Positions 1 through 11,408 are shown, counted from the first letter of the stretch. The stretch is DNA of 11,408 nucleotides from an uncultured bacterium (GCA_963977445.1 CAXBPH010000227.1:1-11408); one strand, 5' to 3'. Numbers and translations: made by a program. Notes: generated by a model from the letters alone, not told the origin.

Positions 1-3000
1 GCAGATAGACACCGTCTTCCATGCGTGCGTTGGGCATTACCGTTTCCGTAAAGCGTTCCGACTTCACCAGATCGACTAAAGCCGCAGTTTCTGTAGTTGG
101 GACGCCATCCTGGGGAAGACCCCGATAGCCGGTCGTACCCAGGCTGAGTTCGCTGGTGCCACAATCGTTGATCGCTTTGACGAAGTAGAAATAGATTACG
201 TTGGTGATAATGAATTCACCTGGATTGAAGCAACCCCGATTAATCAGTTCGTAGTCGGGCGATTTCGCCAGGGTGTCGGAGTAGCGGGGCTCGGTAGAGG
301 TGCCGATGAGTTCGACCCGGTCGGGCTCTCCCGAAGGACTCCGGAAGATTTCATATTGGGTCGCGCCGGGTGTGGCACTCCAGAGTAATTCTACCGAGTT
401 GGCGTGGATACCATCACTTGCCGCCACATTGGATGGGCGCAGCAGCAGGACGCAACCTAACTGGGTGATGGTGGCAATCTGGGGGCTGCCCTCGGCACCC
501 GGAGCTTCAATGCGGATGGTTCCGCTACGGGATTCTTCCGTATCGTTGGGGGCAGCGATAACCTGAAGGCTACCGTCTCCCGAACCATTGGCGGCGGCGG
601 CGAAGCTGAGAAACTGGGCACCGGTTACAAACGATGCGGTCCAGTTCAAGGCACCTGAGCCACCATTTTCAATGGAGATGTTGACCGGTCCACCACCGGA
701 GCCGACGGTCTGTTCGGCCGGAACCACGCGCAGGACGGGTGTGCGTGGTGTCTGCACAATGGTCACCTGCCGTGGACTGTTCGATGAGCCGGGTGCCTGC
801 ACCTGGATAGTACCGGTACGCTCCAGGGTGCTGGTGTTTTCGCTGACCGAAACCGTAATGACGCCGTCATTATTGCCGGAGATGCCGTCGGAGATACTGA
901 TGAAGTTGGCACCGCTCGTAACAGAAGCAGTCCAGTTCATGGTACCCGTGCCAACATTCTGCACCTGGAAACTTACCGCACCTGCGGCGGATCCGGTGGT
1001 CTGGATCTCCGGCGTGACTTCGAGCACCGATTCCTGGGCGGTTTGTGTGATGGTGACTTCCACGGGAGAATTGGTGGCATCACCCGATTCCACACGGATG
1101 GTCACGACTCGGTTTTCCGTGCCAGGGTTGCGGGTCAGGGTTACCGTGACAAGGCCCGAATTGGTCCCACTGGTATTGTCGCTGATCGCCGCGAAGGAGC
1201 CACCCTCGACGACGGAAGCGGTCCAGTTCAAGGTACCGTTACCGCCGTTGGTGACATTGATCGAGGCGTTGCCTGCGGCGGAGCCGAGGAGCTGTGTCGA
1301 TGGCGTGACCTGCAAGAGGGGCACGCCCGCTTGCTGTACGATTTCTACTTCCAGGGGCGAGTTCACTGCGCCTGGTGCGGTGACCGACAGGGTGGCCGTC
1401 CGCTGGAGCACGCTGGTGTTCTCCAGAAAGCTGACGACGAAGGTGCCATTGTTGGTGCCCGTCGCGCCGGAGCTGATGGAGGCGAATCCGGTGCCTGCAA
1501 GGACAACGGCATTCCAATCAAAGGTGCCCGTGCCGGTGTTGCGCACCTGGACGACAATTTCGTCGCCCTCGGCATTCGCAATCGTGCTGGCGGCGGTTAC
1601 CGATAGGGTGGGCACGGCGGCGGACTGCTCAATGGTGAGGATGACGGGCTCACTGCCGACGTCGTCCGAAGAAACGAGCAGGGTAGCCGTACGTGGTTCC
1701 GCCTGGACGCTCACGGCAACATTTACCGTGATGGTGTCGTCATTGGTGCCCGACGCGCCTTCACTCAGGGTGACGAATTCGCTGCCCGACGTAATGGCCG
1801 TGGTCCAGTTCACGTCGCCCGTATTGCCACTCACGTCCACATTGAAGGTCAAGGGACCGCCCTCGGGCCCGACATTCCGGGTCGTGGGGGAAACGGCCAG
1901 TGCGGGAAGAGAGACGAAGAAGGCCGTAACCGATTTGTCGCCATTCATGACCAATTTGGTGGGATTTTCAGAGCCGGTGATATCGCCTTCCCAATGGTCG
2001 AAGACCGAGCCTGCTTCCGGCGTTGCCGTCAGGGTGACTTCGGTATCGGCATTGTAGACGCCGCCTTCGGGGGCGAGGCCTATCGATCCGGGGCCGTTGA
2101 TGGCTGTGCTAAGGGAGAAGCGGGCGTCCCACAGCAAAATGCCGGGTCCACCAGCGCCGCCGTCGTTACCCAGCACCGTGCCTACACCACCCGCGCCGCC
2201 ATCTACGGAGACCGCACCATTTTCGGTGCTCAGACTCTGAATCCAGACGCTGCCACCGGCACCACCGCCGCCACCGGAAAGATCAGAGCCGCCCTCGGCA
2301 CCGTCGGCCGTGATGGCGCCTTCGTTGACGATATTCTGAGCTTCGATGATGATGACGCCACCGCCATTACCACCGAGGGAACCAATACTTACGAAATTCA
2401 TGACCTGGCCGCCACGGCCCCCGCCACTTCCGAATCGGGGAAAGGGATAGGTGTCACGGAATACCTGACCCAGAGAGGTGGCCACCGTATCAAAGGAGGC
2501 TCCGCCGATTCCGCTCGTGTCTGCACCCATACCGGTTGTGCCCCGTGCGCCCGGTTCACGATGTCCGCCACCGCCCCCGGCACCGGGGTTGTTGCCGCCG
2601 CTGACTTCGCCGAATCCACCGCCGCCGCCCCCGCGGTTGGCTTCGCCACTGATGCTGCCCACACTGCCCCAGGTATCACCCTGCTGACCAATGCGGCCGG
2701 GTTCGGCCCCTTCCGTGGTGCCACCACGGTAGCCCCGGCCCGTCGCCGTAATAGCGGCACCCGCCGGAATGGTCAGGGTGCCCCGGACTTTGAGACGCAG
2801 TACACCGCCCTCCGTGGGATTCACGCCCCCGAGCGGGTTGCCAGCATAGGCGCTTACCGTGAGGGTGCTGCCGCTGGACAAGGTCAGGTTTTCCAACGCC
2901 GGTACCTGGGCACCATCGTTGGGATTGTAGGCCGTGGCATCGGAGCCCAGTCGAATCTGGGACCAGAGGTCCTGGATGGTGGTAACACCGGCAGGCACTG

Positions 3001-3151
3001 TGAAAGAGCCATGTCGGCCATCGCCAAAGTCGAATGTGGGGGTCTGTGCCGAGGCCAGAGGCGTATGAATCAGCAGCGCCATCGGAACGAATAAGGACGC
3101 GACCCGTTTCTTGTGGCGATACAGGGTGCGTAACATTGTAGGAAGTCCCAT
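1..3151 (-). CDS. Large secreted multidomain surface protein (Gly-rich head, InlB B-repeat, 5x BACON-like, FN3-like); partial, 3' end beyond window edge
   Basis: Manual translation of the minus strand is open from ATG 3151 to the window edge (1050 codons, no stop). GAAGGG RBS-like sequence lies 9 nt upstream; an alternative in-frame ATG is at 3136. The N-terminus MGLPTMLRTLYRHKKRVASLFVPMALLIHTPLASA|QTP looks like a Sec signal peptide with AxA cleavage. It is followed by a Gly-rich region, an InlB B-repeat-like segment (VTLTATPEAGSVFDHWEGDITGSENPTKLVMNGDKSVTAFF), five repeats with LNWTA-type motifs and an FN3-like segment (RPSNVAASDG..VELLWSATPGATQYEIFRS..YFYFVKAINDCGTS). Confidence 0.92.
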   Translation of the reverse strand, partial: MGLPTMLRTLYRHKKRVASLFVPMALLIHTPLASAQTPTFDFGDGRHGSFTVPAGVTTIQDLWSQIRLGSDATAYNPNDGAQVPALENLTLSSGSTLTVSAYAGNPLGGVNPTEGGVLRLKVRGTLTIPAGAAITATGRGYRGGTTEGAEPGRIGQQGDTWGSVGSISGEANRGGGGGGFGEVSGGNNPGAGGGGGHREPGARGTTGMGADTSGIGGASFDTVATSLGQVFRDTYPFPRFGSGGGRGGQVMNFVSIGSLGGNGGGVIIIEAQNIVNEGAITADGAEGGSDLSGGGGGAGGSVWIQSLSTENGAVSVDGGAGGVGTVLGNDGGAGGPGILLWDARFSLSTAINGPGSIGLAPEGGVYNADTEVTLTATPEAGSVFDHWEGDITGSENPTKLVMNGDKSVTAFFVSLPALAVSPTTRNVGPEGGPLTFNVDVSGNTGDVNWTTAITSGSEFVTLSEGASGTNDDTITVNVAVSVQAEPRTATLLVSSDDVGSEPVILTIEQSAAVPTLSVTAASTIANAEGDEIVVQVRNTGTGTFDWNAVVLAGTGFASISSGATGTNNGTFVVSFLENTSVLQRTATLSVTAPGAVNSPLEVEIVQQAGVPLLQVTPSTQLLGSAAGNASINVTNGGNGTLNWTASVVEGGSFAAISDNTSGTNSGLVTVTLTRNPGTENRVVTIRVESGDATNSPVEVTITQTAQESVLEVTPEIQTTGSAAGAVSFQVQNVGTGTMNWTASVTSGANFISISDGISGNNDGVITVSVSENTSTLERTGTIQVQAPGSSNSPRQVTIVQTPRTPVLRVVPAEQTVGSGGGPVNISIENGGSGALNWTASFVTGAQFLSFAAAANGSGDGSLQVIAAPNDTEESRSGTIRIEAPGAEGSPQIATITQLGCVLLLRPSNVAASDGIHANSVELLWSATPGATQYEIFRSPSGEPDRVELIGTSTEPRYSDTLAKSPDYELINRGCFNPGEFIITNVIYFYFVKAINDCGTSELSLGTTGYRGLPQDGVPTTETAALVDLVKSERFTETVMPNARMEDGVYL
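449..1906 (-). repeat. Five tandem ~97-aa BACON-like (Ig-like) domain repeats within the surface protein
   Basis: Conserved Trp codons (CCA on the + strand) start at 1805, 1514, 1223, 932 and 641, exactly 291 nt apart. Shared pattern: PxLxVxP..G....V.N.G.G.LNWTA.V..G..F..IS...SG.N.G...V....N.....R..TI.V.APG..NSP..VTI.Q. The terminal R-x-x-T-I-x-V...V-x-I-x-Q pattern is characteristic of BACON domains. Confidence 0.85.
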
Positions 3152-3330: not shown

Positions 3331-3336
3331 GGGCCT

Positions 3337-3819
3337 ATGATTCGTGACGCCACACCCCTCGACGCCCCGGCCCTTGCGGCCCTCTACAACCCCTATATCT
3401 TCGAAACGGACATCAGTTTTGAGGAAAAGCCCCTCAGCGACGGGGAAATGGCCCACCGCATGGCGGGGGTTCAGGCCCACTATCCCTGGCTGGTCTGCGA
3501 AGAGGAGGGTGTGCTGCTGGGCTACGCCTATGCCACCCGGTGGAAAGAGCGCCACGCCTATCGCTATTGCGCAGAAACCTGTATTTATCTCCGCCAGGAC
3601 GCGGGAGGTCGGGGTGTTGGCTCGAGGCTTTACGACGCATTGTTGCCCCGTTTGCCTGCGGCCGGCGTACAGATTGCTATCGGCTGCATCGCCCTGCCCA
3701 ACGAGGGGAGTGTCGCGTTGCACGAGAAATTCGGTTTTGAAAAGGTGGGGCACTTTCCGGCCGTGGGCTTCAAATTCAACCGCTGGATTGATATGGGCTA
3801 CTGGCAGAAAAAACTCTGA
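3337..3819 (+). CDS. GNAT N-acetyltransferase, phosphinothricin / methionine sulfoximine / arsinothricin acetyltransferase (Pat/YncA/ArsN1-like) family
   Basis: 160 aa from ATG 3337 (MIRDAT...). Family motifs: YNPYIFETDISFEE, PWLVCEEEG..LGYAYA..W..R.AY, acetyl-CoA motif GRGVGSRLY, IALPNEGSVALHEKFGF, VGFKFNRWIDMGYWQ. Confidence 0.9.
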   Translation: MIRDATPLDAPALAALYNPYIFETDISFEEKPLSDGEMAHRMAGVQAHYPWLVCEEEGVLLGYAYATRWKERHAYRYCAETCIYLRQDAGGRGVGSRLYDALLPRLPAAGVQIAIGCIALPNEGSVALHEKFGFEKVGHFPAVGFKFNRWIDMGYWQKKL

Positions 3820-4006: not shown

Positions 4007-5392
4007 ATGACCCCATCACGTCGGCAGTTTCTGAGCACCGTGGCGACGGGTGCCCTGGCCTTCGGGGTATCGGCGCGTAGTACCGGCCAAGGGACCCAAT
4101 CACCGCCCAATATCGTTTTTCTCTTCTCCGATGACCATAGTGTGCCCGATCTCGGTTGCTATGGAAACACGGCGATTCGAACCCCCAATCTGGACGCCCT
4201 GGCCGCTGGGGGCATGCGTTTTGACCGGGGTTACGTGACGAGTCCCCAATGCAGCCCCAGCCGGGCGAGTATCCTCACCGGGCGGACGCCCCATGCGGTA
4301 GGGGCCTCGCGCCTTCACGTCAATGCGCCCGAGGAGACGGTCAATGTGCCCCAACTCCTGAAAAAGGCGGGGTATCACACGGGTGCCCTTCGTAAGGTGC
4401 ATCAGGGCCATATTCAGCGCGATTTCGACTATTACGGTGGTAAAAACAAGCCCACGGCGGACTTTTTTGAGCAGCGCCCGAAAGACAAGCCCTTTTTCCT
4501 CTGGTTTGGGTCCGTTGACCCCCACCGGGACTATGGCCCCGGTGCCTTGGAGCCGCCCCATGATCCGGCGACGGTGCTGGTGCCGGATTTTCTCCCTGAT
4601 ACCCCCGAAGTACGGCAGGATTTGGCCTACTACTACGATGAAATCGGCCGTTTCGACACGGAATGTGGGGAGATTATTGCCCTGCTGGAGCAACAGGGCG
4701 TGCGGGATAACACCCTGATTGTCATGGCGGGGGACAATGGGATGCCCTTTCCACGGGCCAAGGCGACCCTCTATGAACCGGGCGTGCGGGTGCCCTTGCT
4801 CATGAACTGGCCCGGCGTGATTGATGCCGGTCGTGAGACCCGTGCCCTTGTTTCGCTCATGGATCTGGCAAAGACCTGGCTCGATATCGGTGGGGCGGAG
4901 ATTCCAAACAGCATGGAAGGGGTCAGCCTCCGTCCTTTGCTGACGGGAGAAAAAGAATCGGTACGGGAGCATATATTCTGCGAGCGGAACTGGCACGACA
5001 ACTGGGACCCCATGCGGGGCGTCATTACCGAGCGCTATGCGCTGATACAGAACTACCGTCCCGAAGTGGGCTATATACCCAGTTGGGACCTGCTCCGTTC
5101 GCCGAGTTTTGAATCGATTAAAAAGCAGGCGCAGGCAGGCACCCTCGCGGGGCCATTGCGGTGGTATGCGGCCACCACCAAACCCCTGGTGGAGCTCTAT
5201 GATCTCCAGGCGGACCCCGGTGAGTGGAATAATCTCGCCGAAGATCCGGCCCATGCCGACCGGGTGGAGGCCCTGCAAAAGGTCCTGGGACAGTGGATGA
5301 ACGAGACCAACGATTTCCTGCCGCCACCGGCGGCGGCCTACGGGAAGGACCGACAAAATACCCTGGATGGTGGTGCCATCTGGTGGGAGTGA
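4007..5392 (+). CDS. Tat-exported Cys-type formylglycine sulfatase (N-sulfoglucosamine sulfohydrolase-like)
   Basis: Strong RBS AAGGAG at 3992-3997. Twin-arginine signal SRRQFL; PNIVFLFSDDH; TPNLDALA; sulfatase signature CSPSRASILTGR; KPFFLWFGSVDPHR; DNTLIVMAGDNGMPFPRAKATLYEPGVRVPL; ELYDLQADPGEWNNLA. Confidence 0.93.
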   Translation: MTPSRRQFLSTVATGALAFGVSARSTGQGTQSPPNIVFLFSDDHSVPDLGCYGNTAIRTPNLDALAAGGMRFDRGYVTSPQCSPSRASILTGRTPHAVGASRLHVNAPEETVNVPQLLKKAGYHTGALRKVHQGHIQRDFDYYGGKNKPTADFFEQRPKDKPFFLWFGSVDPHRDYGPGALEPPHDPATVLVPDFLPDTPEVRQDLAYYYDEIGRFDTECGEIIALLEQQGVRDNTLIVMAGDNGMPFPRAKATLYEPGVRVPLLMNWPGVIDAGRETRALVSLMDLAKTWLDIGGAEIPNSMEGVSLRPLLTGEKESVREHIFCERNWHDNWDPMRGVITERYALIQNYRPEVGYIPSWDLLRSPSFESIKKQAQAGTLAGPLRWYAATTKPLVELYDLQADPGEWNNLAEDPAHADRVEALQKVLGQWMNETNDFLPPPAAAYGKDRQNTLDGGAIWWE

Positions 5393-5493: not shown

Positions 5494-7197
5494 GTGCTAC
5501 GGGGATACGTGATAGTGGATGCCGATGGGCGCAAGGTGCCTGTCGAAGAGTCATTGGTGGTTGGCCGCACTTCGGATAGTGGTCTGATGATCGATGATAG
5601 CGCAGCGTCACGTCGTCACATGGAAATTAAGGCGCGCCCTAATACGTTTGTCTGGAAAGACTTAGGGAGTACCAACGGCACCATATTGAATGGGGCCAAG
5701 ATGCTCGCCGGTGAATTGAAGCATGGTGATCGCATCCAGATTGGGGAAACGACCCTCACCTTCGAAGTCCACGGCACGCCCGAGGTGAAAACGCCTGCGG
5801 ATCGGGTCGCCGCACCCCCCGACGAAAACCGTCTTTTTACTGAAACTATCATGGATGCCCAAGGCTTCGTTAAGAAGCAGGAAGTGGCACCTTCGAAGAC
5901 GACCCAACTGCTTGAAGCCGTGTATTCGGTGGCCAATGAGATTGCCACGAATTACGATGTATGCAGCCTGATGGATGGAGTCCTGACGACCACCCTTGGG
6001 GCGATCAATGCCCAGCGCGGTGCGATCTTCCTGGCCGACACGGCCCACGAGCTACTGCCCTGTCCAAATTGTGGCACCGTCCACAGTATCGCCAACGGCA
6101 CCCTCGTGAAAGCCCAAATGGGCGACATACAAATCAGTAGCACCGTGGCCTCCCGGGTTATCCGGGATGGGGAAAGTGTGCTCTATCAGGATACGGACAG
6201 CGATCAGGAGCTTAACGTCTCCGAGTCCATCATGTCCTTGCAGCTTCGTTCCATCGTTTGTGTTCCTTTGCGGGCGAAACACGGCATCCTGGGTATCCTG
6301 TATATCGATTCTGATCGACAGGATCAGAATTATTCTCATGACGATTTACTCCTGGCCGCTTCCGTTGGCAACAGCGCCGGTCTCGCATTGGAAAATGCGA
6401 AGATGCACACGGAGATTCTGGAAAAACAACGTATCGAGCAGGATCTGGCCACGGCGTGGACGATTCAGGAGGGCTTCCTGGTCAAGGAATGGCCCCAGGA
6501 TGACCCCCGCTTTGATGTGTATGGAGAGACCCGCCCGGCGAAGACGGTGGGGGGCGATTTCTATGACTACGTCCGCCCCCGGACCAATACGGTAGGTCTT
6601 TTGCTGGGTGATGTGAGTGGCAAAGGGGTACCTGCGGCACTGACGATGGCCCAGTTGCTGGCCCAGTTTCGCCTGCTTGCCCGGGATTTAGACTCGCCCT
6701 GCGATGTGTTGAAAGAATTGAATCGTGGCCTGGTCAAGCGAAGCCAGCGGGGTATGTTTTGCACCCTCTGTTACCTGACCATCGATCTCACCAACGGTCA
6801 TGTAATTTGCGCCAATGCGGGGCACCATCCCGTCCTGCAGATTGGGAAGAATGGTGTGTCCAATTTTGGTGACGCGACGGGACCGCCTGCGGGCATACTT
6901 CCGGACGGGCCCTGGGTGGAGACCCGGGCCATCATTAATCCGGGAGATAGCGTCTTGCTCTATACCGATGGTATCGTAGAAGCGCGCAGTATGACCACGA
7001 TTATTGAGGGCACGCCCAACGCGTCCCCCAATGAATATGATGAAGAAGGGTTGCATCAATGTGCGGGTCGCCTATATGGTGAGAGTGCCCACACATTGAT
7101 AGATGCAATAAACGCTGACGTGCAACGGTACACGGCACCCATGCCGCCCCATGACGATTGCACGATGATCGCGATGAGGTATCATGGCGTCCAGTAG
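5494..7197 (+). CDS. FHA-GAF-PP2C (SpoIIE/RsbU family) serine phosphatase
   Basis: GTG 5494 is preceded by the RBS GAGGAG. FHA motifs: VGR, SRRH, DLGSTNGT, LKHGDRIQIG. GAF motifs: AQRGAIFL, ISSTVASRV, SIVCVPL..ILGILYIDS, GLALENA. PP2C metal-binding motifs: VGGDFYD, LGDVSGKG, NAGH, LYTDGIVE, HDDCT. Confidence 0.93.
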   Translation: MLRGYVIVDADGRKVPVEESLVVGRTSDSGLMIDDSAASRRHMEIKARPNTFVWKDLGSTNGTILNGAKMLAGELKHGDRIQIGETTLTFEVHGTPEVKTPADRVAAPPDENRLFTETIMDAQGFVKKQEVAPSKTTQLLEAVYSVANEIATNYDVCSLMDGVLTTTLGAINAQRGAIFLADTAHELLPCPNCGTVHSIANGTLVKAQMGDIQISSTVASRVIRDGESVLYQDTDSDQELNVSESIMSLQLRSIVCVPLRAKHGILGILYIDSDRQDQNYSHDDLLLAASVGNSAGLALENAKMHTEILEKQRIEQDLATAWTIQEGFLVKEWPQDDPRFDVYGETRPAKTVGGDFYDYVRPRTNTVGLLLGDVSGKGVPAALTMAQLLAQFRLLARDLDSPCDVLKELNRGLVKRSQRGMFCTLCYLTIDLTNGHVICANAGHHPVLQIGKNGVSNFGDATGPPAGILPDGPWVETRAIINPGDSVLLYTDGIVEARSMTTIIEGTPNASPNEYDEEGLHQCAGRLYGESAHTLIDAINADVQRYTAPMPPHDDCTMIAMRYHGVQ

Positions 7198-7612
7198 AGA
7201 TTTCTATGTTACGTTTCGATCGTCGCCCCGGCTTCTTTGTGATGTTCGGGCGATGTTGCGTAGTTACCTGACCAGTCACGGTGTGGATTCCGATAAGATT
7301 CAGGAAGTGGTGCTGGCGGTGGATGAGGCCTGTACGAATGCCATTCGTCATGCCTATTCTGGTCGGGAAGATAAAATGTTGGAACTTTCTCTCTGTTCCG
7401 GGGATGGATGGATAGAGCTGGAGTTGTGTGATTCGGGAATTCCCGCGCCCTATGAGCGCATTAAGCCCAAGAGCGAAGAAGTGATTGCGGCAGAGGCGCT
7501 CACGCCGGGAGGGCTGGGCATGCATCTGATTTACAACGTATTTGACGATGTAACGTTCACGCCCGGTGATTCAGCGGGAAACACAATTGTGATGCGACTC
7601 CGTTGCGCCTGA
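7184..7612 (+). CDS. RsbW/SpoIIAB-like anti-sigma factor / serine kinase (HATPase_c)
   Basis: N-box LAVDEACTNAIRHAY, G1 box CDSG, G2 box GGLGMHLI..VFDDV. Overlaps the phosphatase 3' end by 14 nt, suggesting translational coupling. Confidence 0.92.
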   Translation: MASSRDFYVTFRSSPRLLCDVRAMLRSYLTSHGVDSDKIQEVVLAVDEACTNAIRHAYSGREDKMLELSLCSGDGWIELELCDSGIPAPYERIKPKSEEVIAAEALTPGGLGMHLIYNVFDDVTFTPGDSAGNTIVMRLRCA

Positions 7613-7720
7613 TGTGGGTGTAACGTGATTCGGTAAGGATATTTTCGACACAAGCGACCGGTATCGGGCGGAGATTGGGGCCTCCACCGTCACACGGGAA
7701 CGATAGCAAGGGTGAATAGG

Positions 7721-8035
7721 ATGGCGCTAGAATTATCACAAGTGGAGCAAGACGGTCATTGTATCGTGATGGCCAAGGGTGAAATCGACCTGTACTCTTC
7801 GCCTCAGTTGCGCGACGCGATACTCAAGGCGTGTAAAGCGTCCAAAAATAAAGTAGGCGTCAATCTCAGTGAGGTTGCCTACATGGATTCGTCCGGCGTG
7901 GCCACGCTGGTGGAAGGCCTCCAGGCGTCGGGCGGCGCAGATTCTTTCCTGTTGATTGCGCCCTCACAATCTGTGCTCAAGGTGCTGCAACTTTCCCGTC
8001 TGGATTCCGTCTTCAGCATTGTGGAGCACGTGTAG
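7721..8035 (+). CDS. STAS-domain anti-sigma-factor antagonist (RsbV/SpoIIAA-like; possible MlaB role)
   Basis: 104 aa from ATG 7721. Motifs GEIDLYSSPQLR, VNLSEVAYMDSSGVATLV (Ser57, codon 7889-7891, is the RsbV/SpoIIAA phospho-acceptor position) and VLQLSRLDSVF. An alternative GTG start is at 7712. Confidence 0.92.
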   Translation: MALELSQVEQDGHCIVMAKGEIDLYSSPQLRDAILKACKASKNKVGVNLSEVAYMDSSGVATLVEGLQASGGADSFLLIAPSQSVLKVLQLSRLDSVFSIVEHV

Positions 8036-8041
8036 GGTCTC

Positions 8042-8833
8042 ATGTCTGCCATTCTGGGAAATACGGGCCGCGTCACGATGAACGCCCTCTATGCCGCCAG
8101 CACGGTATGCGTGCTGATGGTGGATACCCTCAATTGGATGATCTGGCAGCCCCTGCGTGGCAAGGGCATCCGCATGCGGAGCGCCACGGAGCATTTCGTC
8201 GAGTTTGGCGTTCGCTCCGTGCCTATCGTGGGGCTGATTTGCGCCCTCATCGGGGTCATCATGGCCCTGCAGGCGGCCTACACCTTGCAAAAATGGGGTG
8301 CGACGGCCTTGATCGCCAACCTGGTCGGCATTTCTGCCCTCCGGGAACTGGCCCCCCTCATGACAGCCATATTGATTACCGGTCGTTGCGGCTCCGCCAT
8401 TACGGCAGAGATCGGCACGATGAAAGTGGCGGAAGAAATCGACGCCCTGAATGTCATGGGGCTGAATCCCACAAAATTCCTGGTCGTGCCAAAGTTCATG
8501 GCCATGTTTTTTGCCGTGCCCTGCGTTACGGTGCTGGCCATGTTTATCATGATTATGGGCGGTGCCTTTGCCGGGGTGGTGTTGGTGGGGGTGGACCCGG
8601 TGGTTTACTACAATCAGACGGCCGGCGCGTTGACACGGATGGACCTGATCTCGGGTCTTACCAAAAGCGTGTTTTTCGCCGTGACAATCTGTTGGGTAGG
8701 TGTGTATCGCGGTTTCCGCGTGAGCGGTGGTGCCGAAGGTGTGGGTCGTGAAACGACCTCTTCGGTAGTTACCTCGATTCTGATTATCATTGTCGTCGAC
8801 TTGGTGTGGACGTCCTTATTTTTTGCACAGTAG
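8042..8833 (+). CDS. mlaE: MlaE-family ABC transporter permease (MCE system)
   Basis: Motifs GVRSVPIV, RELAPLMTAILITGRCGSAITAEIGTMKVAEEIDALNVMGLNP..LVVP and GGAEGVGRETTSSVV, with multiple TM segments. Starts 6 nt after the STAS stop. Confidence 0.95.
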   Translation: MSAILGNTGRVTMNALYAASTVCVLMVDTLNWMIWQPLRGKGIRMRSATEHFVEFGVRSVPIVGLICALIGVIMALQAAYTLQKWGATALIANLVGISALRELAPLMTAILITGRCGSAITAEIGTMKVAEEIDALNVMGLNPTKFLVVPKFMAMFFAVPCVTVLAMFIMIMGGAFAGVVLVGVDPVVYYNQTAGALTRMDLISGLTKSVFFAVTICWVGVYRGFRVSGGAEGVGRETTSSVVTSILIIIVVDLVWTSLFFAQ

Positions 8834-8836
8834 GCT

Positions 8837-9637
8837 ATGGATAAAGATACCGACAACATACTCGAAGTGCGTGACCTGGTGGTCAAATATGGCGACCGAA
8901 CCGTCCTTGATGGCATAAACATTGATATCAAGCGTGGTGAAGTCTTTGTGATTCTTGGCGGCTCCGGCTGTGGCAAGAGCACCTTGCTCCGCAATCTTGT
9001 GGGGCTGATGCGGCCCCATTCGGGCCAAATCCGTTATAACGGCCAGGACTTCACCAGCATGAACGATGAAGAGCGCGTGAATACCCGAAAGAAAATGGGT
9101 ATGTGCTTTCAGGGTTCTGCGCTGTTTAATTCGATGACGATTGGCGACAACGTGGCGCTGCCCTTACGGGAGCATACCAGTCTGGAGCCATCCACCATTG
9201 ATATCATGACAAAAATTAAGCTGGAGCTGGTGGGGCTGGGTGGCTTTGAAAATTTCATGCCCGCCGAATTAAGTGGCGGCATGATGAAGCGCGCGGGTCT
9301 GGCGCGGGCGATGGCGATGGATCCCGACATTATATTTTATGACGAGCCCTCTGCCGGCTTGGACCCCATTGTAGGCGCGGGTCTGGATATGTTGATCCGC
9401 AAGATGCAGCAGACCTTTAACCTGACCAGTGTGGTGGTGACCCATGAGATGGAGAGCGTTAAGCTCATCGCCGATCGCATCGTCATGCTGGATAAAGGGA
9501 AGGTGATTGGCATGGGTACGCTCGAAGAAATTATGCAGACCGACCATCCTTTCATCGAGCAGTTCTTTGCCCGTCGTCCCGATGCGGAGGGTGAAGATAC
9601 GGCGAAGTATCTTCAGTCACTGACCGACTCAAACTAG
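8837..9637 (+). CDS. mlaF: MlaF/Mkl-family ABC transporter ATPase
   Basis: Walker A GGSGCGKS, FQGSALFNSMT, signature ELSGGMMKRAGLARA, Walker B IIFYDEPSAGLDP, H-loop VVTHE. Starts 3 nt after the mlaE stop. Confidence 0.95.
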   Translation: MDKDTDNILEVRDLVVKYGDRTVLDGINIDIKRGEVFVILGGSGCGKSTLLRNLVGLMRPHSGQIRYNGQDFTSMNDEERVNTRKKMGMCFQGSALFNSMTIGDNVALPLREHTSLEPSTIDIMTKIKLELVGLGGFENFMPAELSGGMMKRAGLARAMAMDPDIIFYDEPSAGLDPIVGAGLDMLIRKMQQTFNLTSVVVTHEMESVKLIADRIVMLDKGKVIGMGTLEEIMQTDHPFIEQFFARRPDAEGEDTAKYLQSLTDSN

Positions 9638-9771
9638 CCGTCGTGCCGTCGCCCCGGTTGCCGGGTGTGTTCTGGCTGTGACGTAAAATTTTGATATGCA
9701 ACGTCTGGCTGGCCGAAGAGGCCCGTGACGGCGCATTAATGCAACATTAATAGAAGCGGAGTAGGAAGGCC

Positions 9772-11013
9772 ATGGCCAGTAAGAAACATAACTTTTCCCG
9801 GACCGAAATCGTCGCGGGTCTTATGGTGCTCGTAAGTCTGGCGGTATTGACAGGCTTTGTGGTTGTCATCGAACAACTGCAGACGGAGCCACCGACCAAA
9901 ACCCTCTATGCCCGGTTTACGAGCACGGTGGGTCTGAGCGACACGGCGGTTGTCCGCTTTGGTGGCCTGCAAGTGGGTCGGGTGGCGGAGATTACCTACG
10001 ATCCCAATGATCAGTCCCTGATTCAGGTTGAGATCCACGTTGATCCCGATGTGCCCATTAACGAATCGAGCCGGGCGACGGTGGAGCAGGTGGGCCTTAC
10101 CGCCGAAAAGCACCTGGAAATATCCACGGGCAGCTCCGACGGCATCTTGATCCCCGATGGGGGCGATATGGCGGTTATCAATAGTGGCTATGGCTTCATC
10201 GACATTCCCGACGTGGATGGCCTGGTGGGTGGCAGTGAGCAGCTCATTGGGGATCTCCGCGATTTTCTCGGGGTAGAGGCGGCGAAAAAAGCCGAAGCGG
10301 CCGGCGAAGAAGAGCTCGCCAGCATTGCCCGCATCTCGGCCGACGTTCGGGCCTTTATGGGTATCAAAGAGGCGCTGGATCGGGAGGCGGCGGGTGGCGC
10401 AGATGCCGTGAAGATTGCGGCCTTGGCGGAAGACCTGCAGAAATTGCTGGGCGTGCGTGAAGCCGTCGCAACGGAAGAAGCGGGCGGCAAAGAATTCGCG
10501 AGCGTATCCCGGATTACCGGTGATGTGCGCGGTATTCTTGGCTGGGAGGCGGCATCGAAAGAAGCCGCGGCCAGCGGAGGTGATGCACCAAATGTTACGG
10601 ATACCATTGGTAGTGTGGATGGTATGCTCACCGACTTCAAACCGCAAATCGATGAAATACTCCAGAAGTTTCCTCCGTTGCAGGATGCCGCGACCAATGT
10701 GATGTCGGGCGTCGCCGACACGATCAATGGTAACCGTGAAGACATCGACGGCATTATCGCGAATGTGAATGGTATTACCACCACGGTCAATGACGATCTC
10801 GGCAAGATTCTTGAAGATATGGGCAGCACGCTGGAGCGCGTTAAGGGGTTGAGCGGTGAAGCAGAAGAGTTGCTGCATCAGAACCGACCGGCTATCGAAG
10901 ATTTGATTGGCGATTTGGGGCACACCATACAGGCCCTGAATGTGTTGTTGGACGATTTGAAGAGCCAACCCCAGTCCGTGTTGTTTGGTCGTCCGGAGGT
11001 GGGTCGGAAGTAG
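9772..11013 (+). CDS. mlaD: MlaD/MCE-family protein with single MCE domain and extended helical C-terminal region
   Basis: RBS AGGAAGG. N-terminal TM (EIVAGLMVLVSLAVLTGFVVVI); MCE motifs GLSDTAVVRFGGLQVGRV and GLTAEKHLEISTG; long helical tail ending in the PqiB-like motif LKSQPQSVLFGR. Confidence 0.92.
   Translation: MASKKHNFSRTEIVAGLMVLVSLAVLTGFVVVIEQLQTEPPTKTLYARFTSTVGLSDTAVVRFGGLQVGRVAEITYDPNDQSLIQVEIHVDPDVPINESSRATVEQVGLTAEKHLEISTGSSDGILIPDGGDMAVINSGYGFIDIPDVDGLVGGSEQLIGDLRDFLGVEAAKKAEAAGEEELASIARISADVRAFMGIKEALDREAAGGADAVKIAALAEDLQKLLGVREAVATEEAGGKEFASVSRITGDVRGILGWEAASKEAAASGGDAPNVTDTIGSVDGMLTDFKPQIDEILQKFPPLQDAATNVMSGVADTINGNREDIDGIIANVNGITTTVNDDLGKILEDMGSTLERVKGLSGEAEELLHQNRPAIEDLIGDLGHTIQALNVLLDDLKSQPQSVLFGRPEVGRK
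10252..10611 (+). repeat. Four tandem 30-aa repeats (2x60-aa) inside MlaD
   Basis: DLRDFLGVEAAKKAEAAGEEELASIARISA / DVRAFMGIKEALDREAAGGADAVKIAALAE / DLQKLLGVREAVATEEAGGKEFASVSRITG / DVRGILGWEAASKEAAASGGDAPNVTDTIG. Each unit starts with Asp, at 10252, 10342, 10432 and 10522 (exact 90-nt period). Confidence 0.85.
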
Positions 11014-11094
11014 ACCCCTTTCCTGTCTGCTCAACTTGGAAACGTGGGTTGCTGCGTGGTGCTTGGACACCGCCGACCCCGAGTAGGAGATATC

Positions 11095-11408
11095 ATGAAG
11101 AAATACATAGCGATAATTGCACTGGCGGGGTTGATTTCCAGCTGCGCAACGTCCCCCAGCCCGAGTATCTATACGGTGAATATGGACCCGTCGTCTAATG
11201 CGGGGAGTCCGGTCAATGTCTCGGTCGGTCGTCTGCGTGTTTCGGAGTCCTTGCTTAACAAGCGGATCTTGATAAAGACGAGCCCCACCGAAATCGAATA
11301 CTATGCGACAGCGCAATGGGCGGCGAGTCTGGATGAAATGTTGCGGGAGAAACTCGCGGTAGAGTTTGGCCCGATTGATACCAGTCGCCCAACTTATGTT
11401 GTGTCGGG
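11095..11408 (+). CDS. PqiC-like / ABC-type transport auxiliary lipoprotein (partial, runs off window)
   Basis: Not in the ORF track. RBS AGGAG, then MKKYIAIIALAGLISSC (lipobox Cys17) ATSPSPSIYTV...VGRLRVSESLLNKRILIKTSPTEIEYYATAQWAASLDEMLREKL. The 'YY...WA..L..ML' pattern and the position after the MCE gene fit the PqiC/ABC_trans_aux family. Confidence 0.85.
   Translation, partial: MKKYIAIIALAGLISSCATSPSPSIYTVNMDPSSNAGSPVNVSVGRLRVSESLLNKRILIKTSPTEIEYYATAQWAASLDEMLREKLAVEFGPIDTSRPTYVVS

Follow-up and report, generated by a model that had tools for sequence, protein, structure and literature searches.

What does a complete partner-switching gene set control when the genes following it encode a transporter of the Mla type and not a sigma factor? 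This question is raised by an 11,408-nucleotide (nt) stretch of DNA (GCA_963977445.1, CAXBPH010000227.1:1-11408), hereafter called the window, which makes up an entire contig in the genome of an uncultured bacterium (7.1 Mb, 94% complete); the named homologues of its MlaE protein are from Candidatus Hydrogenedentota. Open reading frame (ORF) calls together with Pfam and NCBIfam profile searches gave seven co-directional genes on the + strand from position 5494 to the contig end, encoding a sensor phosphatase, a serine kinase, a STAS protein and four components of a transporter, a block that we call the module. We propose, with a probability of about 0.62, that this operon encodes an Mpc-type (Mla-Pqi chimeric) transporter with a separate, phospho-switchable STAS subunit, of which the unphosphorylated form would activate the ATPase MlaF, the kinase switching transport off and the phosphatase switching it on. 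The genes and sites are as follows (lengths in amino acids, aa):

5494-7197, + strand: FHA-GAF-SpoIIE sensor phosphatase (RsbU-type PP2C), 567 aa (SpoIIE PF07228 E 2e-42, FHA 5e-16, GAF 2e-10)
5962-6084, + strand: C157 and C190-x-x-C193-x3-H197 of the phosphatase, in the GAF insertion (CxxC-x3-H at 6061-6084), from the orthologue alignment
7184-7612, + strand: RsbW/SpoIIAB-like serine kinase, 142 aa (HATPase_c_2 PF13581 E 7e-30)
7721-8035, + strand: stand-alone STAS protein, 104 aa, anti-anti-sigma-type in sequence, with a predicted MlaB-type role (TIGR00377 73.8 bits, cut-off 53.45)
7889-7891, + strand: codon of Ser57, the predicted phosphoacceptor and first Ser of D-S-S-G, from alignments to known STAS proteins
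8042-8833, + strand: MlaE permease, short form, 263 aa, without an N-terminal STAS domain (PF02405 E 2e-72)
8837-9637, + strand: MlaF ABC ATPase (PDB MlaF matches E 1e-55 to 2e-65)
9164-9229, + strand: predicted STAS-binding helix of MlaF, aa 110-131, from the complex model
9772-11013, + strand: MlaD/MCE protein, 413 aa, with a transmembrane helix, one MCE domain (PF02470, aa 42-120) and a long helical C-terminal part
11095-11408, + strand: PqiC-like (ABC_trans_aux/DUF330) lipoprotein, cut by the contig end, with a signal peptide and Cys17 (PF03886 E 1e-7)

An earlier note made from the sequence alone had described the same seven co-directional genes, and the profile search of all window proteins confirmed them. 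Its gaps of 6 nt between STAS and mlaE, 3 nt between mlaE and mlaF and 108 nt between kinase and STAS agree with our coordinates; the kinase, phosphatase and DSSG motifs it had called intact consist of residues conserved in orthologues; and the MlaE, as it had said, has no STAS domain, a separate STAS gene taking that place. No sigma factor is found among the genes of the whole contig, in line with the same source. The 14-nt overlap of the phosphatase and kinase genes was absent from it. The remaining gaps are 134 nt (mlaF-mlaD) and 81 nt (mlaD-pqiC-like). The phosphatase start is placed at GTG 5494 behind GAGGAG, the in-frame GTG 5455 being the alternative. The 108-nt gap between kinase and STAS is atypical, since the median among relatives is 13.5 nt and the gap is at most 40 nt in 58 of 72 of them; it thus marks no general break. 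Promoter and terminator scans gave counts at chance level (4 against 4.3 expected, and 7 against 5.4), for which reason no weight is given to terminator-like hairpins seen at 9653-9665 and 11001-11017.

All parts of a partner switch are present, namely a PP2C phosphatase, an HATPase_c_2 kinase and a single-domain STAS protein with D-S-[ST]-G. The metal-binding aspartates D355, D373, D492 and D555 of the phosphatase are kept in 74-75 of 75 orthologue rows, and its AlphaFold2 model has three ordered domains with a mean predicted local distance difference test score (pLDDT) of 87.9. The kinase residues E48, N52, H56, D83, G85, G110 and G112 are present and conserved in about 75 orthologues, with R22, E48, N52, H56, D83, G110 and G112 invariant in 27 cross-phylum rows. 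RsbW (PDB 6M36, E 2e-25) and SpoIIAB are the best PDB matches of the kinase profile, and an N-terminal Arg aligned with SpoIIAB R20 is kept; the kinase scores below the NCBIfam equivalog cut-offs for RsbW and SpoIIAB. In the STAS protein the motif reads D56-S57-S58-G59, and Ser57 is kept without exception in the 211 distinct sequences of module-type STAS proteins. This residue aligns with a position reading Ala in the SpoIIAA chain of PDB 1TID, which we take to be a phospho-site mutant. It also aligns with Ser56 of SypA, the stated phosphorylation site of that protein (PMC10120452).

The linkage of these genes was followed in 135 genomes of the phylum, which are kin and therefore not independent, with tallies made by hand. 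An mlaE orthologue (54-100% identity, E <1e-80; the paralogue stands apart at ~40-46%) is present in 82 genomes, and all 82 neighbourhoods were viewed, 75 of them at ~14 kb and the window with six others at +/-1.5 kb. STAS lies directly upstream of mlaE in 81 of the 82, and kinase, STAS and mlaE are contiguous in 79. Rearranged cases are few: the locus is cut by a contig end in G013, with phosphatase-kinase-STAS at the end of another contig; in G064 and G065 the STAS-mlaEFD-pqiC part is intact and phosphatase-kinase has relocated elsewhere; and in G094 mlaF-mlaD-pqiC have come to precede the phosphatase, STAS-mlaE still being 3' of the kinase. When the block splits, as in G064 and G065, the STAS stays with the transporter. 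The kinase was detected in 87 of the 135 genomes (in one of them, 63% complete, as a fragment), STAS in 86 and mlaE in 82. Every one of the 82 genomes with mlaE has both STAS and kinase, and none of the three was found with these queries in 48 genomes.

Does the order extend beyond the phylum? An MlaE scan seeded with short MlaEs from outside Hydrogenedentota yielded at least 572 confirmed candidates, and among the best 80 of these loci 27 have a separate STAS gene, 48 are fused or of other type and 5 are cut. A kinase lies upstream in 22 of the 27 separate-STAS loci (20 outside Hydrogenedentota) and within 1.5 kb upstream in none of the 48 fused or other loci. By their records the carriers belong to Nitrospirae (Nitrospirota), Acidobacteriota, Omnitrophota, Gammaproteobacteria and Rhodospirillales (Alphaproteobacteria). 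Three loci titled Verrucomicrobiia (L140, L144, L146) are almost identical to the Acidobacteriota locus L141, through a mislabelled record or a recent transfer, and Verrucomicrobiia is therefore not counted as a phylum. The check on synteny suggested in the earlier note thus found the block kept within Hydrogenedentota and in at least four other phyla, and since the order is kept across phyla it is not due to chance.

A cross-phylum STAS profile matched 37 of 151 genomes in the family of G140, 141 of 201 in the order of G141, 57 of 201 in the class of G142 and 42 of 201 in the phylum of G143, so the STAS subfamily is common in the sampled groups. The context was checked for the best 30 STAS loci per group (120 in total, the four seed genomes included). 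A kinase gene precedes the STAS in 116 (3 cut, 1 without), and mlaE is within 1.5 kb downstream in 118 (2 of them at 0.9-1.5 kb; 2 cut). Fusion of phosphatase and kinase into a single protein is seen at 29 of the best 30 loci in the family of G140 and at 23 of the best 30 in the order of G141. The sensor part of the phosphatase is not constant: it is FHA-GAF in the window, elsewhere it may be GAF, HDOD or missing altogether, and many Proteobacteria have GAF-PP2C-kinase fusions. A search of plasmids with module-type STAS returned 8 weak matches (32-35% identity).

How could such a switch be connected to the transporter? The earlier note had claimed that the STAS protein acts as MlaB. By sequence it is no orthologue of MlaB: the best PDB matches of the STAS profile are anti-anti-sigma factors (E 3e-23 to 1e-8; TM1442 3e-23, RsbV 3e-15, SpoIIAA 8e-13), and MlaB chains match only at E 0.009-0.8, so that 'acts as MlaB' is to be read as a functional claim. 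In that functional sense the claim is supported by a complex model with MlaF and by conserved interface residues. Of the two complexes that the note had suggested for modelling, that of MlaF with STAS was run, and it scored 0.75 against 0.17 for the best control, with runs agreeing in at least 93% of contacts and a partner pLDDT of at least 86; among 157 solved complexes 116 attain the mark used for this score, as do 2 among 215 mismatched pairs. In the model the STAS sits on the helical subdomain of MlaF, the subdomain that binds MlaB, through MlaF residues 110-131, 161-162 and 193-194 and STAS residues 23-31, 56-65 and 87-94, and Ser57 in the interface touches MlaF M124, I127, K128 and D162. 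The E. coli MlaB likewise binds the helical subdomain of MlaF, with Thr52 central (PMC7367683).

Sequence comparison, which is independent of the score of the model, points the same way: the predicted interface residues of MlaF are specifically conserved in operons with the kinase module. At 18 interface positions the identity to the window MlaF is 0.66, against 0.57 for the whole protein, in 21 module loci (19 outside Hydrogenedentota), whereas it is 0.34 against 0.45 in 42 fused or other loci and 0.26 against 0.50 in 9 paralogues of the same phylum; shared descent contributes to this conservation. T120, I123 and M124 of MlaF are found in 20, 19 and 19 of the 21 module loci. On the STAS side A61 lies at the centre of the modelled interface; this position has Ala in all 211 module-type sequences, in 16 of 22 MlaE-fused ones and in 0 of 9 other STAS proteins (Gly in 6).

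The same face also seems suited to the kinase. In SypA, D22 and S57 dock on kinase arginines and stabilise phosphorylation (PMC10120452), and they are matched here by D23 and S58. A supposed contact between SpoIIAA D23 and SpoIIAB R20 was not found in print, and the SypA/SypE pair is used in its place. D23, S57 and S58 are present in 201 of 201 distinct STAS sequences with an adjacent kinase and, as regards D23 and S58, in the two STAS proteins whose kinase has relocated. Five kinase-less Acidobacteriota STAS proteins next to mlaE carry D23T and S58A, yet keep R31, S57, A61 and E65. The divergent kinase-less locus L175, which reads T23 and D-T-S-A, was left out of this count. No module-type kinase was found in the five genomes concerned, where matches reach at most 67 bits against 137-168 for module kinases, several of them lying beside their own STAS. 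A STAS tree (FastTree, ~100 columns) did not separate module STAS as one clade from generic STAS; we take from it no more than how the kinase-less group is nested. One STAS face thus appears, from alignment and model, to carry both kinase-docking and MlaF-docking residues, which would make the protein fit for a partner switch.

These patterns bear on the view that the genes are mere neighbours, with the transporter needing a constitutive STAS and the kinase and phosphatase acting on other STAS proteins of the cell. The genome does hold six other TIGR00377 matches, STAS stays with mlaE where phosphatase-kinase relocates (G064, G065), and kinase-less versions exist. D23 and S58 are nevertheless universal beside a kinase and lost only in the kinase-less clade, the kinase never stands upstream of the 48 fused or other mlaE loci, and the order holds across five phyla; we consider this view very improbable.

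We therefore favor a partner switch with the transporter as its output. Unphosphorylated STAS would sit on MlaF at its helical subdomain, in the manner of the E. coli MlaB, and would be needed for a stable, active ATPase. The RsbW-like kinase would dock on the same STAS face through D23 and S58 and phosphorylate Ser57; phospho-Ser57, lying in the MlaF interface next to MlaF D162, would release the STAS and turn transport off, and the sensor phosphatase, with its FHA and GAF input, would reverse the phosphorylation and turn transport on again. In keeping with release, the E. coli MlaB variant T52E shows a reduced pull-down of MlaF (PMC7367683).

Several observations weigh against this proposal and are gathered in what follows. 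The first group concerns the direction of control. MlaB T52A binds MlaF and keeps the assembly while ATPase activity is abolished (PMC5016091, PMC7367683), and the authors find simple phosphoregulation hard to reconcile with this (PMC7367683). Four of the 22 MlaE-fused STAS domains (L154, L161, L176, L178) have a phosphomimic-like Asp or Glu at the Ser57 position (D-D-F-G, D-E-F-G), and in Bordetella phosphorylation of BtrV promotes its binding to BtrW (PMC8256260). The same wiring might thus follow another logic, in which the STAS does not leave MlaF, or is captured by the kinase with no turnover, and in which the MlaF ATPase is modulated or even activated by phosphorylation. Ser57 is buried against M124, I127, K128 and D162 of MlaF in the model, however, T52E weakens MlaFB (PMC7367683), and phosphorylation blocks output binding in SiaABCD (PMC8457831). 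Furthermore, the kinase-less lineage keeps the transporter, which argues that the unphosphorylated state of the STAS works. We regard this other logic as quite unlikely.

The second group concerns the output itself. Like RsbU/RsbW/RsbV-SigB and SpoIIE/SpoIIAB/SpoIIAA-SigF, which include the nearest solved structures, the module combines PP2C, HATPase_c_2 and STAS with D-S-S-G; it differs from them in having no SigB/F/G sigma factor, a kinase below the equivalog cut-offs and the order phosphatase-kinase-STAS-transporter. The search for a SigB-like factor encoded elsewhere, named in the earlier note as a possible kinase partner, found none: the best TIGR02980 score in the own genome is 134.8 against a cut-off of 234.35, the best sigma matches there being FliA and RpoD-like, and a SigB/F/G-type factor occurs in 0 of 135 genomes of the phylum (E<=1e-42, with up to 19 candidates scored in each) and in 0 of 5 module genomes of other phyla. 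SigB/SigF was rejected as the output, being found in neither locus, genome nor phylum sample. FliA is present in 72 of the 87 genomes with the kinase and in 30 of the 48 without it; since its presence does not follow that of the kinase, it was dropped as an obligatory output. A sigma domain was seen neither among the 60 scanned of 180 flanking ORFs at loci of other phyla nor among seven recurrent Hydrogenedentota neighbour clusters scanned, which include a protein of unknown type (37 loci), PilZ (20), amidase_3 (19) and a PagL-like protein (7).

The scope of this search was SigB/F/G, and FliA, RpoD-like and extracytoplasmic function (ECF) factors are possible kinase partners. Four of the 86 STAS-bearing genomes, moreover, keep STAS, kinase and phosphatase without an intact transporter. 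In G134 (100% complete) the transporter genes are cleanly absent, the usual post-operon gene adjoins STAS, and the switch scores are undiminished, with no decay. G061 (92% complete) and G063 (82%) show a similar loss, with phosphatase-kinase elsewhere, and in G073 (85%) mlaE is truncated and mlaF was not found. G134, G061 and G063 have the long paralogous MlaE only. The STAS of G063 has drifted at the predicted MlaF contacts L24, S27, P28, V60, V64, L91 and R93, and the G061 and G063 kinases score E 2e-16 and 6e-20 against 1e-26 and 6e-29 for congeners, which suggests that the switch is decaying there after transporter loss. As a whole the four genomes fit recent loss and, equally, a second output of the switch, above all the undecayed G134. 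The STAS might accordingly do two jobs, as an MlaB-like structural subunit and as a regulator, anti-anti-sigma or other, that mainly serves an unknown target or a sigma factor outside SigB/F (FliA, RpoD-like, ECF); in that case the transporter would be a STAS sink or sensor. The anti-anti-sigma-like STAS, the kinase Arg aligned with SpoIIAB R20 and the FliA of the genome would suit such a role. What speaks against it, besides the sigma surveys of genomes, flanks and neighbour clusters and the FliA tally, is the joint absence of switch and transporter in 48 genomes. We judge a double role unlikely.

The remaining points concern the evidence for the favored partner switch at MlaF. A similar complex (MlaFB) has been solved, so the pass of the model may reflect likeness, and binding of this STAS copy is thus a modelled one; close cousins often pass the complex test, and the controls included no other STAS. 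The 120 STAS-anchored loci were found by a STAS profile and are biased toward conserved STAS residues. At 25 of the 30 loci from the Acidobacteriota class the 1.6 kb upstream contain no phosphatase; among loci viewed more widely, some have one downstream on the opposite strand. The five kinase-less STAS proteins form one clade and therefore count as a single event, and their D-S-A-G also occurs in TM1442, which is presumably phosphorylatable.

What would the transporter be? With its set of mlaE, mlaF, long mlaD and pqiC-like genes it is assigned, by gene content, to the Mpc type. MlaC (PF05494) and MlaA (PF04333) were found in 0 of 4 genomes (94-97% complete, two of them single-contig), with positive controls in E. 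coli and Caulobacter. Full-length forms of the PqiC-like lipoprotein are present in relatives; at three loci (L072, L073, L085) mlaD is followed by three tandem pqiC-like genes. MlaD is helical over aa 156-405 in a low-confidence model (mean pLDDT 69), and this C-terminal part would be a needle of the Mpc/PqiB type, so that the transporter probably bridges two membranes; from its family the substrate would be a lipid. Aa 156-267 (10237-10572) form four helix-helix units of ~27-34 aa each in the model, and MlaD measures 331-413 aa in 63 relatives, which together suggest that needle length varies by repeat number. The DNA of mlaD has short two-copy repeat families only, and no intergenic repeats were found. 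MlaF ends in a tail with Y258-x3-L262, like the 'handshake' extension of E. coli MlaF, whose residues are Y261/L265/L266 (PMC7367683). An aromatic-hydrophobic-x-x-hydrophobic tail of this kind is present in 20 of 21 module loci, 4 of 4 kinase-less ones, 7 of 42 fused or other loci and 53 of 72 Hydrogenedentota orthologues.

Compared with E. coli MlaFEDB (PDB 6XGY/6XBD; PMC7367683, PMC5016091), the module has in common MlaE, MlaF, an MCE protein and a separate STAS protein, the predicted STAS site on the MlaF helical subdomain with a conserved Ser/Thr in the interface, and the MlaF Y-x3-L tail. It differs in that the STAS is anti-anti-sigma-like, lies upstream of mlaE and is encoded together with a kinase and a phosphatase, and in that a long MlaD and a PqiC-like lipoprotein take the place of MlaC/MlaA. 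Phosphorylation of MlaB has been put forward as a hypothesis, no kinase being named in the passages concerned (PMC5016091, PMC7367683). Brucella abortus MpcEFDA (PMC12436622) shares the order E-F-long D-PqiC-like lipoprotein and, as described there, the lack of MlaC, whereas its MpcE carries an N-terminal STAS fusion in place of a separate STAS gene with kinase and phosphatase; 'kinase' and 'phosphoryl' occur 0 times in the main text of that paper. The MCE-DUF330 operon type is common according to PMC5561183, the main text of which has 0 occurrences of 'kinase' or 'phosphatase'.

Partner switches with outputs other than sigma factors are already known from SypA/SypE, BtrUVW and SiaABCD. P. aeruginosa SiaABCD (PMC8457831) has the order phosphatase-kinase-STAS-like-effector, and phosphorylation blocks effector binding there as we propose here; in V. 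fischeri SypE (PMC10120452) kinase and PP2C are parts of one protein, as in the fused versions of the module in Proteobacteria. In these two systems and in Bordetella BtrUVW (PMC8256260) the STAS-type protein itself is the output, as in the module. Their outputs, a diguanylate cyclase, an unknown biofilm target and type III secretion, do not include an ABC transporter subunit in the accounts cited. A full-text literature search, covering main texts and few subscription journals, found no paper that joins a partner switch and an Mla-type transporter.

If the proposed partner switch at MlaF is right, it would turn lipid transport between membranes on and off directly, at the post-translational level, and would add a transporter to the partner-switch outputs. 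The module genes are prone to annotation as 'anti-sigma' regulators, and this would then be wrong. Since the natural kinase, phosphatase, STAS and transporter stand in one block, phosphoregulation of the MlaB type could be tested with five purified proteins. A broader reading, to which we would give somewhat less than an even chance, is that the module represents an undescribed, widespread control of ABC transporters, a complete partner switch whose only output is the assembly of a lipid pump and whose phosphatase sensors are interchangeable; it may also be ancestral to STAS-MlaE fusions, perhaps to MlaB, through kinase loss that fixed the subunit 'on'. Among the nearest 150 MlaE cluster representatives 116 are long forms, 52 of which have an N-terminus matching this STAS profile (E<1e-3), and a second MCE locus of the own genome (contig C16) encodes a long, STAS-bearing MlaE. 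In a quick MlaE tree 70 long forms make up one clade (97% by the Shimodaira-Hasegawa-like approximate likelihood ratio test, SH-aLRT) with the module-type short forms outside, which fits the module as the older state, the tree being midpoint-rooted.

As for the input, the FHA residues G24, R25, S39, H42 and N61 of the phosphatase are kept in 75 of 75 orthologue rows and are, we assume, phosphothreonine-binding positions. Together with the 35 Pkinase matches of the genome, this leads us to infer that the input may come from Ser/Thr kinase signalling. The CxxC (C190/C193) of the GAF insertion is found in 69 of 75 Hydrogenedentota orthologue rows; C157, C190, C193 and H197 are each kept in at least 90% of 50 rows, and the region is ordered in the AlphaFold2 model, so CxxC-x3-H is a possible metal or redox site or sensor. 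FHA-GAF is a recurrent input module in the genome, five more FHA-GAF proteins with other C-terminal parts being encoded on contigs C10, C61, C78 and C81.

Some neighbouring genes may be mentioned as well. A protein of ~265-295 aa with no Pfam or NCBIfam match (L074:6233-7117 and relatives) is encoded 3' of pqiC in 37 of 83 Hydrogenedentota loci, and in G063 it stays beside STAS after transporter loss. The records of L136 and L137, one from Nitrospirae and one from Acidobacteriota, both show an AI-2E family transporter 3' of the operon. The genes upstream of the operon show no conservation across relatives; in the window they are a GNAT acetyltransferase (3331-3819) and a sulfatase with a Tat-like N-terminus (4007-5392). 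On the minus strand, positions 2-3151 encode a large secreted protein that is truncated at the contig end and unrelated to the operon; it has several BACON domains and a region rich in glycine.

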